Shown here piece by piece: positions 3,171 to 46,852 of a stretch of DNA of 64,000 bases (positions within the stretch are counted from its first letter, which is position 1; each line of letters starts with the position of its first letter). The notes beneath the pieces are model-generated. The model searched no databases. It had not been told where the DNA came from and saw only the letters and a program-made list of their open reading frames with translations. Source of the stretch: Escherichia phage JY01; sequence record OR995200.1, one strand, 5' to 3'. The translations under genes and the position numbers were made by a program.

Positions 3171-3317
3171 TTAAAAATTCTCGTTAGAGATTAAAACTCG
3201 GTAGTCACGTTCTTCTGAATTTCATCTTCTTTCGACAGATCTCTCAGTTGTAGACTACCACATAGAATTGTTCGGTTAACTTATTATTCCGACACCCAAT
3301 TCATATTATTATTTATA

Positions 3318-3653
3318 TCACTTATAAAGACACGGAATAGCTTTATAGTGACAAGTAACGAATTTTTGTTTAATTTCTTTTGGCTGCTTAAGACCCAGAG
3401 CTACAAAAGGATGCGGAACATTTCGAATTTGACCAACTGGAAGAGAAGTCAAATCACCAACTTCGCAGAAACCTTCAGGAACATCAGGACCGACAGAGTG
3501 AACTACACACAGTTCAGGAACTTCACCTTGAACACGTTTACCGATAATAAGTCCTGATTCTGTAACTTCTTCATCACCGGCTTGTGCAGGTTCAGAAACT
3601 AAAATAACATATTCACCGACAGCACGAATTGGTAGCTGTTGTACTTCAGACAT
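3318..3653 (-). CDS. 31: gp31 co-chaperonin (GroES analogue for capsid protein folding)
   Basis: 111 aa; sequence and size as recalled for T4 gp31; synteny rIII-31-cd. Confidence 0.9.
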
Positions 3654-4018: not shown

Positions 4019-4255
4019 TTATTTACCTATTACAGTTTTAATATGAGTTGTTCCACGTTCTTTAAGGGTGGAAAGTAATTTTTGGCATTTTTCTAAATCA
4101 GATTTCCAACTATATGGTCTATCAATACAAACCCATTCTGACTTATAATACTGCTTCCATTTAGAGAAAAAATATTTCTTATACTCTACAGCAAATGAAA
4201 TGTTCTCGTTGGAATAAGAACTAATTGCTGTGAGTTGTACCAAACGAAATTTCAT
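4019..4255 (-). CDS. hypothetical protein (31.2 position)
   Basis: 78-aa ORF, stop overlaps cd region. Confidence 0.5.
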   Translation of the reverse strand: MKFRLVQLTAISSYSNENISFAVEYKKYFFSKWKQYYKSEWVCIDRPYSWKSDLEKCQKLLSTLKERGTTHIKTVIGK

Positions 4256-4836
4256 TATTCACCACAGAATTCGTTGATATTTTCCCAGTTTAACTTATTC
4301 AAGTTTTTCTTAGGAACATTAAACACTTCAATACCTGCATTTCGCAGAATATCATCCCAGCCAGGTTTATTTTTATCATATGTTTCGCAATAAACCAGCT
4401 TTTTAATACCAGATTGAGCTATCGCTTTTGCACAATCTGGACAAGGAGAAAGTGTTACATACATAGTAGCACCTTCAATAGAAGAGCCATTTCGTGCAGC
4501 AAACAAAATCGCATTTAGTTCAGCATGAATTTCATTTTTAGACGACCATTCCGAGTGAGCGCTACGATGTTCTTTCGCCAAAACAAAACGATCAGTTGAA
4601 CCAAATGATACGCATTCAGGCTTATGGCCTTGAATGATAGTATGTTTAGGTTTATTCAGCAACCAACCTTGCTCAGCGGCATAATCACAACAGTTCACAC
4701 CACCAGCAGGGGAACCATTATATCCGGTAGAAATAATACGTCCATTCTTTTCAATTACTGCTCCTACCTTCCAGGAGCAACATTTTGATTCCTGCGATAC
4801 TAAATATGCAATTTGAAGTACTGTACTCGCTTTCAT
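4255..4836 (-). CDS. cd: dCMP deaminase
   Basis: 193 aa; cytidine/dCMP deaminase zinc motifs HAELNAI and SPCPDCAKAI; T4 position. Confidence 0.9.
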   Translation of the reverse strand: MKASTVLQIAYLVSQESKCCSWKVGAVIEKNGRIISTGYNGSPAGGVNCCDYAAEQGWLLNKPKHTIIQGHKPECVSFGSTDRFVLAKEHRSAHSEWSSKNEIHAELNAILFAARNGSSIEGATMYVTLSPCPDCAKAIAQSGIKKLVYCETYDKNKPGWDDILRNAGIEVFNVPKKNLNKLNWENINEFCGE

Positions 4837-35152: not shown

Positions 35153-35191
35153 TTTCTAATCTCCGTAATTCTGTATCAGTAGTTGATAGTT

Positions 35192-35223
35192 GTATAGTAC
35201 CACAGTATGCTTTGGTTGTAAAC
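35192..35223 (-). promoter_or_regulatory. early promoter upstream of motA
   Basis: GTTTAC at 35218-35223, -10 TATAGTACC, conserved leader. Confidence 0.55.
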
Positions 35224-36761: not shown

Positions 36762-36902
36762 TTACCATACTAGTGAATGTAGTGCCATAATAACATCAGA
36801 AATGAAAAGCACGACTTGAATTAATCCGAACATTACTCCATAATATAGTGCTACTAATAAAGTAGCAAGGGCTAATGAATAGCCCAAGATTTTCTTAATC
36901 AT
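36762..36902 (-). CDS. small membrane peptide (52.1 position)
   Basis: 46-codon hydrophobic ORF; overlaps the next ORF by ATGATTAA. Confidence 0.35.
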   Translation of the reverse strand: MIKKILGYSLALATLLVALYYGVMFGLIQVVLFISDVIMALHSLVW

Positions 36903-37047
36903 TTTCATTTAATAGCCAAAACAATGATAAAATTGCTAATACGCCTTGAGCTGTTGCTTGTAAAAATACTGAAGTTTCTCCAGTTATTACTGTTCCGGCG
37001 AATAAAAAGGACCAGCAGAAAAAGGCTATACCATAAACAAATTTCAT
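36895..37047 (-). CDS. ac: Ac-like small membrane protein (acriflavine sensitivity)
   Basis: 50-codon hydrophobic ORF at the T4 ac position; assignment by position and size only. Confidence 0.45.
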   Translation of the reverse strand: MKFVYGIAFFCWSFLFAGTVITGETSVFLQATAQGVLAILSLFWLLNEND

Positions 37048-37054
37048 ATTTTCC

Positions 37055-37135
37055 TCACTGGCGTCCGAAGACGCCTTTAGTTTTAAAATTATTACGATAG
37101 AACTGCATCACATGTTCGTTATGGAAATTACTCAT
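37055..37135 (-). CDS. stp: Stp peptide (suppressor of three-prime phosphatase; modulates the host EcoprrI-PrrC system)
   Basis: 26-codon [29 protein letters not shown], as recalled for T4 Stp; start overlaps the ndd stop. Confidence 0.7.
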
Positions 37136-37593
37136 TAATATGCCTGCAAAACGAATTTAAAGTTATCAGCCAACATACGGTTCATTTCTTCAAGTGTTTG
37201 ATACTCAGAATGATGATTACGAGTAAACGCTAAAGCTAACTGTCCTTTTCCAAATCCCGTCGTCAGAGGTTTCATCTTAGAAGCAGGCAGATAAAACACT
37301 GTGTATGGAACATTGTTATTTGCAATAGTACGTGCAAGCTGAGACCGACGTTGACGAATATGACTTAGAACTGCACTGAATCCTTGCTTAGAACGCTGAT
37401 TACCTACATAAAATCGTGCTGACACACATGGATTACTAAATGGACGACCATCTAATTTACTTACTAAAAAGTAAAATCCAGGTTTAGATAAAATATCTTT
37501 ATGCGGAGTTCCCAAAAACCACTCACCACCCTTGATTGTACCAATAACAGTAGCACCTGCATCATTCAGATCAGTAACAGTCATATATTTCAT
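37135..37593 (-). CDS. ndd: Ndd nucleoid disruption protein
   Basis: 152 aa from [10 protein letters not shown], matching T4 Ndd as recalled; track ORF has a 26-codon extension. Confidence 0.85.
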
Positions 37594-37651
37594 ATTAATT
37601 TCCTCTAAATTATTTTCTACTCCAAGGCCGCATGAATACGCGGCCATTAAA

Positions 37652-37867
37652 TTAATCGTCGCAGTCGACACTCAATTCCCAAAACTCTTCTACGGTATAA
37701 GTTTCAGTATCATTTTCAATACAGAAACGTTCATTACTATTGTTTGCTAAAGTAGCGTTAACTGTCATTTTTTCGCTAGTGCTCTTAAGAGGTGAAATAC
37801 GAATTAACTGATCGCCGTTATCTAAACAAAAAATTTCACCAACTTTTAAATCTTTAAAGATTTTCAT
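37652..37867 (-). CDS. hypothetical protein (ndd.x)
   Basis: 71-aa ORF. Confidence 0.45.
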
Positions 37868-37982
37868 AATTCACCTCAAGGAGTATAAAATCCGAATGCA
37901 GTTGTTGACCATCCCATCCAATATGGAAAATTTGCACCAATGTAAAACATAAGAATATAAAACCAACCGCTCAACAAATTCA

Positions 37983-38201
37983 TCATTTTACACCATTCCA
38001 AATTGTTTCAACCACAGATTTTAAACCATTTTGATGAATATCAATTCCGACTACTGTCATCAAATAGATTCCAACTACAACTGAACCTAAGACAAAAATC
38101 AGCATAAAAATGAATAAAGCCGGAAAAATATTATCGAAAAACCATTCAATAAATGTAAAAGCACTGCGTTTACGCTTCATATTTTCCTCACATAAATCCA
38201 A
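37983..38201 (-). CDS. small membrane protein (ndd.x)
   Basis: 72 aa with a long hydrophobic segment (LFIFMLIFVLGSVVVGIYLM). Confidence 0.45.
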   Translation of the reverse strand: MDLCEENMKRKRSAFTFIEWFFDNIFPALFIFMLIFVLGSVVVGIYLMTVVGIDIHQNGLKSVVETIWNGVK

Positions 38202-38301
38202 AGTAAACGTTTAATACATCAATCATTAAAACGATTGGGAATATACTCAAAACTATTAGTATTATAACTACATTCCATATAGCTTTAACAATCTTTTTCA
38301 T
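38188..38301 (-). CDS. small membrane peptide (ndd.x)
   Basis: 37 aa from MKKIVKAIWNVVIILIV; the track ORF's N-terminus is translated promoter leader. Confidence 0.45.
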   Translation of the reverse strand: MKKIVKAIWNVVIILIVLSIFPIVLMIDVLNVYFGFM

Positions 38302-38325
38302 TTTCTGTTCCTCCGTAGTTGATAG

Positions 38326-38359
38326 GGTAATAGTACCACGGAAGAACAGTCTTGTAAAC
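38326..38359 (-). promoter_or_regulatory. T4-type early promoter module
   Basis: GTTTAC at 38354-38359 with conserved -10 and leader CAACTACGGAGG. Confidence 0.55.
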
Positions 38360-38543
38360 AACTTTTTAAAAATATTCGTAATAAATGTGAATACCAATCA
38401 CCACTGTTGAAACCTGTGCAACCCACCACGCACAAGCAATAAGTACAGAATTCAAAATTTTCATAATAACCTCATCACAAAAGTAAATGTTAAACAAATT
38501 AATGGAATACTAATTAACCAAACGAAACACCACCATAATGAAC

Positions 38544-38807
38544 TCATAGTTCAATCTCAGCAATTTTCATTTCATTACTATTAATAGCCGCTTTAAGACT
38601 ATCTGAAAGAATTACATCCCAGTGGTCATTCATATGACCATTAATTAAGCGTGTAATTTCTTCTGGAGTTGAAAAATAAGGCGTATCAGACTCCCAATGC
38701 GATAGTCCCAAGCGAGTATAAATCATACCTTCATCATCGCTAGAATATTCAACTGACACAAATTCATCAGTTATTTTATGTTTAGCGTAATAAAATTTAA
38801 ATTTCAT
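38544..38807 (-). CDS. hypothetical protein (ndd.x)
   Basis: 87 aa from MKFKFYYAKH; the track ORF's N-terminus is translated promoter leader. Confidence 0.5.
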   Translation of the reverse strand: MKFKFYYAKHKITDEFVSVEYSSDDEGMIYTRLGLSHWESDTPYFSTPEEITRLINGHMNDHWDVILSDSLKAAINSNEMKIAEIEL

Positions 38808-38832
38808 TTTCCGCTCCTCCGTAGTTGATAGT

Positions 38833-38865
38833 TGTATAGTACCACGGTCCTTGTGGTATGTAAAC
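38833..38865 (-). promoter_or_regulatory. T4-type early promoter module
   Basis: GTTTAC at 38860-38865, -10 TATAGTACC, conserved leader. Confidence 0.55.
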
Positions 38866-38881
38866 TGTTTTATGAAATTTT

Positions 38882-39439
38882 TTAAATAGAAAGATACCAT
38901 CCGTTGTAGTTGCTTTTTCTTACAACCTTACGAAGGTCTTCTCTATCACCGATGAATTTCGGAGTGTACTGGATGACACCTGGATGAATTTCTTTAGTGT
39001 TGAATATAATTATACAGTCAGCGACTTGATGATTTAGAATGGGCCCTAAATTTATTCCAGAACCATATGGATACTCTCCGCTGCATCCCGTTGTTACCGA
39101 AATCCAACGCGAGTCAGTTTGATGTGTTTTGACTTCTACACGAAGCCCGCAATATTTTGGATGCGCTAAAACATCCCATGCATACGTGTACGGATCATCG
39201 ACATTTTCTTGGCCTTTATTGACATATCCGCTTAGCCAATCTGCCACAAAAAACTCTGCGTACACCGCGATACGGCATCTTTCGATAACTTCTGCTTTAT
39301 CCTGGTTCGGGTTTTGTTTTAAAGAGTATCTTGCTGTATCAGCAATTTTGACCTTCATTTCACTAGTCAAGTCACTGTTCGATAGGGTAAATGTCGGAAT
39401 CTGAAATAGTCTCTGCAAACCCGGATTTGTTTTCTGCAT
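38882..39439 (-). CDS. denB: endonuclease IV (DenB-like)
   Basis: 185 aa, same size as T4 DenB, immediately upstream (in map order) of rIIB. Confidence 0.7.
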   Translation of the reverse strand: MQKTNPGLQRLFQIPTFTLSNSDLTSEMKVKIADTARYSLKQNPNQDKAEVIERCRIAVYAEFFVADWLSGYVNKGQENVDDPYTYAWDVLAHPKYCGLRVEVKTHQTDSRWISVTTGCSGEYPYGSGINLGPILNHQVADCIIIFNTKEIHPGVIQYTPKFIGDREDLRKVVRKSNYNGWYLSI

Positions 39440-39480: not shown

Positions 39481-39510
39481 CAAAAGGGCCGAAGCCCCTT
39501 ATTTTATTTG
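39481..39510. terminator. bidirectional terminator hairpin
   Basis: GGGCCGAAGCCC stem-loop flanked by A-run on one side and T-run on the other. Confidence 0.55.
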
Positions 39511-39698
39511 AATTGTGCAATTCTTTTTTCTAAACACTCTGCGTAAGATTTCATTGAGATGAACTGTGAAAGTAGAAGTTCTTGCTCAACTGCACTAACT
39601 GTTAGAAACTTTGTGCTTTCTAAAAATTTGCTCAGTGCATTAATTTTGAGCATTAATTGATCGTATTCTTCTTTTACTCGTGCTTGATAACCTAACAT
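39504..39698 (-). CDS. hypothetical protein (denB.1 position)
   Basis: 64-aa ORF flanked by tetraloop hairpins. Confidence 0.45.
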   Translation of the reverse strand: MLGYQARVKEEYDQLMLKINALSKFLESTKFLTVSAVEQELLLSQFISMKSYAECLEKRIAQFK

Positions 39699-39726
39699 AA
39701 TTTTCCTTAGTTAAGGGCCGAAGCCC

Positions 39727-40665
39727 TTATTTAAATTGTTCAGTAACGTCTTCAACTACTTCGTATTGGCAGGTACGCATTTTAGCGTCGTTGTAATCAA
39801 TCGGAATTGATACTACATCACGTGGATGTACTTTAACTTTTACAACTCGGCTGGTTGAACTGCCAAAGTGACGAATATAAGATTTAGAACACACATGCAG
39901 ACCACGAGAACAAGTTTGTGTATCATCATCATTCACACGAGTACGTGGCATTTTAACTACTTTACCCGGACTGTTATCAAAGGTGTTTGAGTGACAGTCA
40001 AAGTAGTTGTCACGAACTACTTTCCAAGCATAGAAGTAACCATCTTCGGTGATTTCAATATCGTTTGCTACCAAGAAATCAAAGAGTCGAGATACCGCTT
40101 TTTGGCTTGGGTTTTCCAGCAGATTTTCCAAGAACGGAAAATAAAATTCAAAGTTTTCGCCTTTTTCCATCGAGTCAAGAATACGATCAACCAAACCAGA
40201 CCGCAATTCAATATTTTGATAGAACAAGCTTCCACCTTCAATTCGAACATCACCGGAAATATATTTTTCAACAGCGCGACGAACATTAATTTTTTGTGCC
40301 GCTTCTTCCAACTTATCTGCTACAAGCAGATTAAGAATTTCCTGGAAGTTTGAATGAGTATTAGGAGTTGCGTTATAAGTTACACCGTCAACAGTAATTG
40401 AAATGAATTTTTTAGAAGCATTCCAAATAATATCAGATTTAGCAACTGGAGCAATAGCTACATCGCTATTAACTTTAACTGTAATATCACCGCTAATAGT
40501 AACTTTAGGGCGTTTAGCTTCTTCAGCATTTTTCAAAACACGACGGATTGTGTCAACCGATACATCCTTCCAATAAGCTAATTCCTGCTGAGTGTAATTA
40601 CCGCTTGAATACAATTTAACAATTTCAGCTTGTTCGTTTTTGGTCAGGCATTTAATATTGTACAT
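39727..40665 (-). CDS. rIIB: rIIB protein
   Basis: 312 aa, same as T4 rIIB, adjacent to rIIA. Confidence 0.9.
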   Translation of the reverse strand: MYNIKCLTKNEQAEIVKLYSSGNYTQQELAYWKDVSVDTIRRVLKNAEEAKRPKVTISGDITVKVNSDVAIAPVAKSDIIWNASKKFISITVDGVTYNATPNTHSNFQEILNLLVADKLEEAAQKINVRRAVEKYISGDVRIEGGSLFYQNIELRSGLVDRILDSMEKGENFEFYFPFLENLLENPSQKAVSRLFDFLVANDIEITEDGYFYAWKVVRDNYFDCHSNTFDNSPGKVVKMPRTRVNDDDTQTCSRGLHVCSKSYIRHFGSSTSRVVKVKVHPRDVVSIPIDYNDAKMRTCQYEVVEDVTEQFK

Positions 40666-46757: not shown

Positions 46758-46852
46758 GTTATTTTCTGTATCAGTAGTTGATATTGATATAGTACCATAA
46801 TCAACTACTGATGTATATAGTTTTATGAAAAAATTTTAAACTTTATGCAAAT

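Follow-up and report, generated by a model that had tools for sequence, protein, structure and literature searches.

The window analysed here, a 64-kb stretch of Escherichia phage JY01, a T4-like phage of the genus Tequatrovirus, carries six small protein-coding genes under purifying selection between ndd and denB. Judged by gene order and sequence, this interval is the ndd.1-ndd.6 cluster of a Tequatrovirus. Its products are very probably real, early, and membrane-directed micro-proteins, and we consider it fairly probable that they form an immediate-early pulse of inner-membrane micro-proteins that adjusts host envelope functions. Action by binding to specific partners rather than by membrane damage is given about an even chance. 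The gene ndd.4 is further preceded by a hairpin that embeds its own promoter and covers its Shine-Dalgarno (SD) sequence, by which its translation on read-through RNA is probably silenced.

The original prediction, made from the letters of the window, described a cluster of tiny, mostly hydrophobic peptide genes between ndd (37135-37593) and denB (38882-39439), and both the flanks and the genes were found as it described. All of them lie on the minus strand. The cluster is composed of ndd.1 (37652-37867), which encodes a soluble acidic protein of 71 amino acids (aa); ndd.2 (37876-37986), encoding 36 aa that start with MMNLLSGWFYILMFY, or 35 aa from a conserved second ATG; ndd.2a/3 (37983-38180), a 65-aa DUF7248 protein; ndd.4 (38188-38301), a 37-aa single-pass peptide; ndd.5 (38366-38464), encoding 32 aa that start with MKILNSVLIACAWWVAQ; and ndd.6 (38461-38547), encoding 28 aa. 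An 87-aa open reading frame (ORF) at 38544-38807, soluble, acidic, and assigned to PHROG 2390, follows beyond the interval first marked out. The two ORFs formerly listed as falling below 60 aa are ndd.2 and ndd.5, located exactly as described, and the 72-codon size once given came from reading the 65-aa frame of ndd.2a/3 from an upstream TTG. Another 72-aa ORF, on the plus strand at 37532-37750, was dismissed as antisense noise.

The 2.4 kb around the cluster matched 558 phage records, and in 489 of these the match covers at least 80% of the segment; the best nucleotide match is 97.8%, and identity to T4 is approximately 95-96%. Nucleotide identity to about 490 Tequatrovirus genomes amounts to 95-98%, and the gene order is colinear with ndd...denB of T4. 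Gene order and sequences agree with the annotated ndd.1-ndd.6 of T4 and their equivalents in other Tequatrovirus records, and the alignment and the annotation tables of T4 and FriedrichZschokke gave the identical strand and order between ndd and denB. Every ndd.x ORF matched a PHROG over its full length (PHROGs 2183, 4135, 2401, 3098, 5011, and 8851; E 1e-37 to 3e-17). The products share 94-100% amino-acid identity and common PHROG and Pfam families with T4 ndd.1,.2,.2a,.3,.4,.5, and.6 (NC_000866, T4p269-T4p275), of which they are orthologues; T4 was hence the correct comparison to propose, and the cluster itself is already known. Many GenBank records (e.g., PYPS2T, JLBYU31, and T4_7t1) label homologues of ndd.1-ndd.5 as "naphthalene 1,2-dioxygenase", which no family search supported and which is a probable mis-expansion of the gene symbol ndd spread by similarity.

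The coding status of these frames was evaluated using an alignment from denB to ndd of 20 genomes, namely the window and 19 relatives (T4, RB32, ime09, Sf23, Sf25, PYPS2T, Kha5h, KNP5, SG1, OES_C-2, EP01, pSe_SNUABM_01, IsaacDaniel, FriedrichZschokke, and five IMG/VR contigs). The pooled pairwise ratio of nonsynonymous to synonymous differences per site (pN/pS) in the annotated frame was 0.093 for ndd.1, 0.154 for ndd.2, 0.085 for ndd.2a/3, 0.064 for ndd.5, and 0.153 for ndd.6, as compared with 0.095 for ndd and 0.039 for denB, while the two shifted sense frames gave 0.4-12. For ndd.4, comparison with the 36-aa homologues of Gaprivervirus and Dhakavirus (68-69% nucleotide identity) gave a dN/dS of 0.17-0.21, and the comparison of these two genera with each other gave 0.08. 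Each gene has either an SD or a 4-nt overlap with its upstream neighbor: ATGA overlaps join the 87-aa ORF to ndd.6, ndd.6 to ndd.5, and ndd.2a/3 to ndd.2, and spacers of 7-8 nt with GAGGA or GAGGTGA separate ndd.4 from ndd.2a/3 and ndd.2 from ndd.1. Homologues of the same length occur in Mosigvirus, Gaprivervirus, Dhakavirus, Mosugukvirus, Marfavirus, and a metagenomic lineage.

A tblastn search against 50,697 phage records located ndd.2a/3 in 494 records, 493 of them with a single uninterrupted match to at least 80% of the query; ndd.6 in 494 and ndd.5 in 493, all at full length; ndd.2 in 518, including 25 Klebsiella phages at approximately 44% identity over the full length; and ndd.4 in 596, about 100 of them outside Tequatrovirus, so that ndd.4 has the widest distribution of all. 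The outcome named beforehand as speaking against the genes, namely that close relatives have lost the frames, was looked for, and the frames proved intact save for the 65-aa gene of the T4 reference, one IMG/VR contig with 2 nt inserted at the end of its ndd.6, a fusion in Sf25, and, outside the 19 aligned relatives, the laboratory T4 mutant T4_583L. These data bear on the alternative that the frames are open by chance, in spacer or leader DNA rich in AT, and that any conservation lies at the nucleotide level. It could appeal to their very short length, to the omission of some from the annotations of EP01 and OES_C-2, to five products that have never been detected as proteins, and to the low nucleotide diversity (π) of ndd.4 (0.020) and ndd.6 (0.027), which could mean constraint on DNA or RNA rather than on protein. 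The concentration of synonymous substitutions in the annotated frame (0.06-0.15, against 0.4-12 when shifted) already contradicts it, however; ndd.4, ndd.6, ndd.2, and ndd.2a/3 retain length, start, and motifs across genera at saturating synonymous divergence, and every gene has its SD or coupling overlap and stays intact in 493-596 genomes. We therefore regard chance frames as extremely improbable. As a separate observation, the π of ndd.4 and ndd.6 in the 20 genomes is lower than that of their neighbors (0.04-0.07), and the synonymous pS of ndd.4 is 0.025 versus 0.14-0.21 for neighbors; recent spread of a cassette by recombination, or an extra RNA constraint, could account for this.

The gene map was cleaned at three points by this comparison, giving a single 65-aa gene, a 37-aa start of ndd.4, and an unannotated ndd.6 in RB69. 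Where the window has one 65-aa DUF7248 gene, two are annotated in the T4 reference, ndd.3 (26 aa) and ndd.2a (40 aa), and the difference is a single G, missing from codon 2 near position 166,620 of NC_000866 (4049-4129 and 3933-4055 of the T4 stretch compared, against 37983-38180 of the window). Since this G is present in two re-sequenced T4 genomes (OL964745 and OZ209057) and the frame is uninterrupted in 493 of 494 records, the T4 split is probably a reference error or a stock-specific variant. The ATG of the annotated 42-aa T4 ndd.4 (4137-4265 of the T4 stretch, against 38188-38301) arises by a C-to-T change within the SD (ACTATGGAGG); it is missing from the window and most relatives, so that the conserved 37-aa start is likely the true one. 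Homologues of ndd.6 with 28 aa, 54-57% identity, and the same coupled position exist in RB69 and JM17. The RB69 copy (NC_004928; MSSKMWIGIWLLSIPMICIIFSIVLRYL; 3380-3466 of the stretch examined, minus strand) is unannotated and overlaps the stop codon of ORF270c. An unannotated 36-aa hydrophobic ORF comes after it (3273-3383, minus strand), and the same pair was observed in Mosigvirus JM17.

Several of these genes had been described as carrying their own copy of an early promoter and leader, forming a battery of independently promoted genes. A cassette core, GTGGTACTAT-N4-CTATCAACTAC, does recur on the minus strand of the window in four copies (35179-35203, 38315-38339, 38821-38845, and 46774-46798) against zero expected from shuffled sequences, but only two of them serve the cluster, one inside the interval before ndd.4 (38302-38365) and one just outside it before the 87-aa ORF (38808-38881). 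The ndd.4 cassette, recognized by the promoter scan and as a member of repeat family D1, consists of an AT-rich upstream part, a -35 box TTTACA (38358-38353), TGn, a -10 box TACTAT (38335-38330), and the leader ATCAACTACGGAGGAACAGAAA. The second cassette has its -35 box at 38864-38859, its -10 box at 38841-38836, and the SD GGAGGA. Both cassettes share TTTACA, a 17-nt spacer, TGn, and TACTAT, are preceded by AAAAAGTT or AAAATTTCATAAAACA, and place GGAGGA 6-7 nt before the ATG. This arrangement matches the UP/-35/TGn/-10 make-up of T4 early promoters (PMC2988021) and the consensus TTTACW-N17-TAYWAT of the PST/T4 promoter-early stem-loop (PeSL) cassettes (PMC4122927), from which we infer that the cluster would be transcribed early in this phage.

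A scan for terminator-like sites found none between the cassettes and the downstream genes, including ndd. With two cassettes and no such site, the genes constitute two coupled strings instead of independently promoted units: the 87-aa ORF, ndd.6, and ndd.5 form the first, and ndd.4, ndd.2a/3, ndd.2, and ndd.1 form the second, which probably runs on into ndd. Promoter-like sites at 38159, 38011, 37911, and 37768 were not counted, as 18 such sites were found versus 13.4±3.9 in shuffled sequence. A GC-rich hairpin (GGCCGCGU...AUGCGGCC; 37626-37645, minus strand; fold z=-2.6) without a U-tract lies between ndd.1 and ndd and is conserved in T4 and FriedrichZschokke with a 2-nt loop difference. Related leaders were also noticed before T4 nrdC.8 and imm.1 in the off-target tables of a published T4 guide library.

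The ndd.4 cassette contains a 15-bp inverted repeat, of which the 5' arm (38349-38335) lies in the promoter spacer and the 3' arm (38319-38305) covers the SD. The sequence that separates the -35 and -10 boxes, CTGTTCTTCCGTGGT, can base-pair with the leader and its SD, ACTACGGAGGAACAG, and the -10 box is located in the loop. The RNA fold was evaluated as -22.7 kcal/mol (z=-4.2), and 0 of 200 shuffles were as good. Among 14 Tequatrovirus variants, 14-15 of the 15 pairs are kept while the loop varies, and the arm substitutions are compatible with pairing in all cases but one, which affects a terminal pair. The remaining cassette copies of the window did not fold into a structure of this type. The same design with other arm sequences was found upstream of ndd.4 homologues in further T4-like stretches (L021, L022, L025, and L049), with folds of -25.5 kcal/mol in Gaprivervirus (z -6.75), -18.8 kcal/mol in Dhakavirus (z -4.3), -13.4 kcal/mol in Mosugukvirus PM2 (z -2.9), and, in the metagenomic lineage L049, -26.8 kcal/mol for this hairpin and a further one upstream of it taken together; the L049 helix covers the AUG too. 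Two further IMG/VR lineages have a weaker form of the design or lack it (z -2.4 and -1.4), and Marfavirus has a 9-bp stem around the -10 box that ends short of the SD. In a MAFFT alignment of the cassettes across genera the arms fell out of register, because they are shifted relative to the -35 and -10 boxes; pair counting was hence limited to the Gaprivervirus/Dhakavirus subset, and the cross-genus case rests on the folding z-scores of each lineage. In that subset 99 of 99 pair cells are paired, and covariation is limited to a single compensatory pair (UA to GC) besides two changes that preserve a wobble.

Transcription from the ndd.4 promoter should begin in the loop. RNA made from it would then be free of the 5' arm and open to translation, and read-through RNA would have the SD buried. 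On read-through RNA the hairpin thus probably keeps ndd.4 from being translated; an attenuator or a recombination site is another role that the stem could have, in place of this one or beside it. We can go further only speculatively and consider the following unlikely, though not negligible: that this promoter-embedded anti-SD hairpin, kept with different arms in at least five T4-like lineages and not described before, marks ndd.4 (possibly with neighbors) as a dose- and time-critical immediate-early membrane effector whose own-promoter RNA alone is translated, such as the unmapped T4 determinant of the phospholipid switch or a membrane-directed counter-defence factor.

The membrane character of the products was evaluated from the best 19-residue Kyte-Doolittle (KD) mean. 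The values for ndd.2a/3 (2.83), ndd.4 (3.06), ndd.5 (2.05), and ndd.6 (2.31) are high enough for spanning a bilayer, that of the aromatic-rich ndd.2 (1.17) is borderline, and that of ndd.1 (0.48; grand average of hydropathy -0.42, isoelectric point 4.3) is too low. Five of the six products (28-65 aa) are hence predicted to be single-helix hydrophobic peptides, as first suggested for most of them, with ndd.1 as the soluble acidic exception. The ndd.1 protein (PHROG 2183, E=1e-37; precomputed Pfam PF26909) has homologues of 66-70 aa in RB69, Gaprivervirus, and Dhakavirus, its SD GAGGTGA lies 8 nt past the ndd.2 stop, and its AlphaFold model gave a predicted local distance difference test (pLDDT) score of 44 from a shallow alignment. 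In ndd.2 (PHROG 4135, E=2e-24), whose start overlaps the ndd.2a/3 stop, the motif N-x-P-Y-W/L-x-G-W/I-S is conserved. Residues 6-63 of ndd.2a/3 match Pfam PF23906 (DUF7248; E=5.5e-19, 68 bits versus a cut-off of 27), and the whole protein is laid out as a basic N-terminus, an interfacial helix, a long helix bearing the transmembrane (TM) segment, and a conserved C-terminal ENGLKSVxETxWNG tail. Its AlphaFold model (pLDDT 81) comprises a helix at 3-17, a kink at Pro20, and a continuous helix at 19-64, which indicates a single-pass protein and not a helical hairpin. The ndd.4 peptide (PHROG 3098, E=3e-21; precomputed Pfam PF26889) follows the pattern MKKxxKAIWN ... VLSIFPIVxMID, that of ndd.6 (PHROG 8851, E=3e-17) follows MSSxxW...WLxSIPxIC...R.L, and ndd.5 (PHROG 5011, E=1.5e-25) has its SD GAGG within the 3' end of ndd.6. 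Paralogy of ndd.4 and ndd.6, considered from the shared SI(F)P motif, was rejected at an hhalign probability of 0.4%. By the positive-inside rule, the MKK of ndd.4 and the MKRKR of ndd.2a/3 suggest an orientation with the N-terminus inside. A search for remote homologues of ndd.2a/3, ndd.1, and ndd.4 retrieved only close T4-like relatives plus one homologue with 54% identity. This 76-aa relative of ndd.2a/3 keeps the juxtamembrane motifs IEWFFDNIFP and ENGLKSVxETxWNG around a variable TM core, the pattern expected if the flanks make specific contacts, and the conserved polar or special residues in or near the helices (KAIWN and MID in ndd.4, W..WL.SIP.IC in ndd.6, and the PYW motif in ndd.2) argue for such contacts also.

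These features speak to the possibility that the peptides damage the membrane as type I toxins or holins do, by depolarizing or permeabilizing the inner membrane without a specific partner. TisB, Hok, and Ibs-type toxins are small and have a single hydrophobic helix with a short charged end, and the 28-37-aa peptides of the cluster resemble them in this respect. An anti-SD hairpin that restricts ndd.4 to its own early promoter in several genera would suit a tightly dosed product, and several small immediate-early genes of T4 have host-lethal products (Kutter et al., PMC6071114). Against this, the conserved non-hydrophobic motifs (KAIWN and MID; ENGLKSVxETxWNG; PYWxGWS) point to specific contacts, a phage dependent on host energy for approximately 25 minutes would suffer from an early loss of membrane potential, and no antisense RNA or Rfam family was found on either strand. 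We judge damage of this kind quite unlikely. That the peptides may target host membrane complexes, as originally proposed, is a reasonable inference.

Published data on the T4 orthologues bear on the timing and dispensability of the cluster. The original prediction held that the peptides are expressed immediately after infection; for T4 this is borne out at the RNA level, as ndd.1-ndd.6 are all of the early RNA class, and at the protein level for Ndd.1 alone, which is an early protein (Wolfram-Schauerte et al., PMC9697503 Table S2). The T4 deletion saΔ9, which removes 52.1, ac, stp, ndd, ndd.1-ndd.6, and denB, is viable at 50% of the wild-type yield, but infection with it no longer stimulates phospholipid synthesis; the authors call the ndd.1-ndd.6 products unknown (Kutter et al., PMC6071114). 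RegB is reported to cleave GGAG in early SD sites (PMC3014915), and both leaders of the cluster carry GGAGG.

On this basis, a mechanism can be proposed for the pulse of envelope-adjusting micro-proteins. In the first minutes of infection, the peptides would be made in a short burst from two strings with strong sigma-70 early promoters, which would end at the shutdown of early promoters, this end probably being aided by RegB cleavage at the GGAG of the SD. The ndd.4 peptide would be made only from own-promoter transcripts, as the promoter spacer would pair with the SD on read-through RNA. The peptides would then insert into the host inner membrane, with the N-terminus inside suggested for ndd.4 and ndd.2a/3, and may act stoichiometrically on membrane proteins of host or phage, or on the lipid-synthesis machinery. 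They may thereby serve as accessory factors of host takeover or counter-defence that are useful only on some hosts or under some conditions.

Several points weigh against this proposal. Membrane insertion, topology, and any partner are predicted from sequence, and no similarity to characterized proteins was found in Pfam (besides a DUF), NCBIfam, PADLOC, or PDB sequences; Rfam gave no match on either strand. Within the genus, pN/pS of ndd.4 was 0.675, a ratio that is uninformative since only 8 of its 114 sites vary, too few substitutions to show selection alone. The five hydrophobic products are listed as NA in the T4 proteome (PMC9697503 Table S2), which is tempered by the poor suitability of tiny hydrophobic peptides for standard tryptic mass spectrometry. 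In CRISPRi-ART every T4 ndd.x was "Not fit", with no cost of knock-down on the laboratory host (PMC11879866). The loss of phospholipid stimulation has been traced no more finely than to a 3.4-kb deletion, from which ac, stp, ndd, and denB are missing too (PMC6071114), and is hence a regional lead only. A literature search found neither ribosome profiling of T4 nor a phenotype for an individual ndd.x gene.

The slot between denB and ndd differs between genera. Mosigvirus (RB69 and JM17) has the 87-aa gene, ndd.6, an unrelated 36-aa hydrophobic ORF, and ndd.1. Gaprivervirus and Dhakavirus have an extra ORF (91 or 75 aa), the 87/88-aa gene, ndd.4, a 48-aa ORF in Gaprivervirus, ndd.1, and a 114-aa gene. 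Mosugukvirus PM2 contains ndd.4 only, Marfavirus (a Klebsiella phage) contains two soluble ORFs (66 and 79 aa), an ndd.4-like 35-aa peptide, and ndd.2, and the metagenomic lineage L049 contains ndd.4, an 87-aa-like gene, ndd.2, and a DUF7248 gene. The members common to several genera are thus ndd.4, ndd.2, ndd.6, and ndd.1. Within Tequatrovirus, the hot spot is the 87-aa gene (PHROG 2390, E=7e-46), which heads the string with ndd.6 and ndd.5: its π of 0.21 is the highest locally, versus 0.02-0.07 for its neighbors, its alleles are approximately 50% divergent in OES_C-2, SG1, and Sf25, and an unrelated 68-aa ORF takes its place in RB32 and EP01. The window has this gene, while T4 lost it through an in-frame deletion between two ATGAAA repeats that left an 8-codon MKIAEIEL overlapping the ndd.6 start. 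Such turnover fits the published model of PeSL-mediated shuffling (PMC4122927).

The Sf25 fusion, which is natural and in frame (1592-1780 of its stretch), combines 31 codons from the start of ndd.4 with the final 31 of ndd.2a/3, and the T4_583L mutant (964-1095 of its stretch) joins ndd.5 to the tail of ndd.2a/3 at the microhomology GCGGTAGTAG; the hydrophobic modules of the cluster evidently recombine without loss of frame. Elsewhere in the window, denB.1 (39504-39698) is bracketed by near-identical GGGC-UUCG-GCCC tetraloop hairpins (39483-39500 and 39712-39729) that form a direct repeat 229 nt apart. With the U-tract that comes after it, the downstream hairpin resembles a terminator; such flanking repeats could also mediate excision of the gene.

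The variability of the slot is what arms-race selection predicts, and it raises the possibility that the peptides are counter-defence or superinfection-exclusion factors, directed against membrane-anchored abortive-infection or exclusion systems or sealing the envelope against secondary phages, and useful on particular hosts only. Cassettes turn over between genera, the 87-aa alleles diverge, and the genes are dispensable on K-12 yet retained in about 500 genomes. Near the cluster, on the same side as ndd, lie stp (37055-37135, minus strand), annotated as an activator of host PrrC and elsewhere as an inhibitor of type IC restriction, and beyond it gene 52, 52.1, and ac (minus strand; 52.1 and ac within 36762-37047). 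Together with ac, the neighbors invoked for this idea include rIIA/rIIB, which counteract RexAB. The hydrophobic peptides, however, keep 94-100% amino-acid identity across E. coli, Yersinia, Salmonella, Hafnia, and Citrobacter hosts, unlike fast-evolving anti-defence proteins, and PADLOC, whose models represent defence and not anti-defence, gave no match. A dedicated role of this kind is accordingly held as a tentative and rather unlikely explanation, and the broader reading of a pulse that adjusts envelope functions is preferred.

T4-like phages are in wide use for phage therapy, and small hydrophobic early genes account for a sizeable part of those of their genes that still lack an explanation. 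The cluster is a compact example, as it is kept in approximately 500 genomes, is dispensable in the laboratory, and lies inside the only T4 deletion reported to abolish infection-induced phospholipid stimulation. Being a rediscovery of annotated genes, it opens nothing new in itself, and the function of the peptides is no more testable than before, save for what the cleaner gene map and the ndd.4 regulatory feature add; both are new here and narrow down which genes deserve testing first.

Among known systems, the bacterial small membrane proteins AcrZ, MgrB, MgtS, and SgrT resemble the ndd peptides in size range, single hydrophobic helix, and short charged terminus. They modulate larger membrane proteins, which offers a mechanistic analogy. 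The T4 small membrane proteins Ac and gp52.1 are also similar, and ac and 52.1 of the window encode products of the same hydrophobic character. All of these lack sequence similarity to the ndd peptides, so that membership in their families cannot be claimed.

The two cassettes resemble the PeSL cassettes of T4-type phages (Arbiol et al. 2010, PMC2839356; Comeau et al. 2014, PMC4122927) in having an AT-rich region, sigma-70-like -35 and -10 boxes, a stem-loop, an SD, and a start codon. Like PeSL units, which adjoin small variable ORFs, they are repeated, with deletions and replacements between relatives, and the ndd.4/.5 region of T4 versus PST was itself given by Comeau et al. as an example of cassette exchange (PMC4122927). 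The stem-loop is present in the ndd.4 cassette, but the second cassette has only a 7-bp remnant stem (z=-0.45). The PeSL papers place the PST/T4 stem-loops upstream of the promoter, whereas that of ndd.4 in the window encloses the -10 box and has the SD region as its 3' arm; neither paper mentions SD sequestration (PMC2839356, PMC4122927). The closest geometry is that of T4 e, soc, 49, and I-TevI, of which the SD lies in a helix on the long RNA initiated upstream and transcripts from an internal promoter lack the 5' arm and are translatable (Uzan and Miller 2010, PMC3014915). The ndd.4 cassette, as read from its sequence, has the same geometry with the SD in a helix. The internal promoter of those genes is late and their translation is delayed, whereas that of ndd.4 is an early sigma-70 promoter. 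The ndd.4 hairpin may hence be, at most, a variant of the e/soc/49/I-TevI design, in which an immediate-early internal promoter would confine translation to the earliest period of infection.

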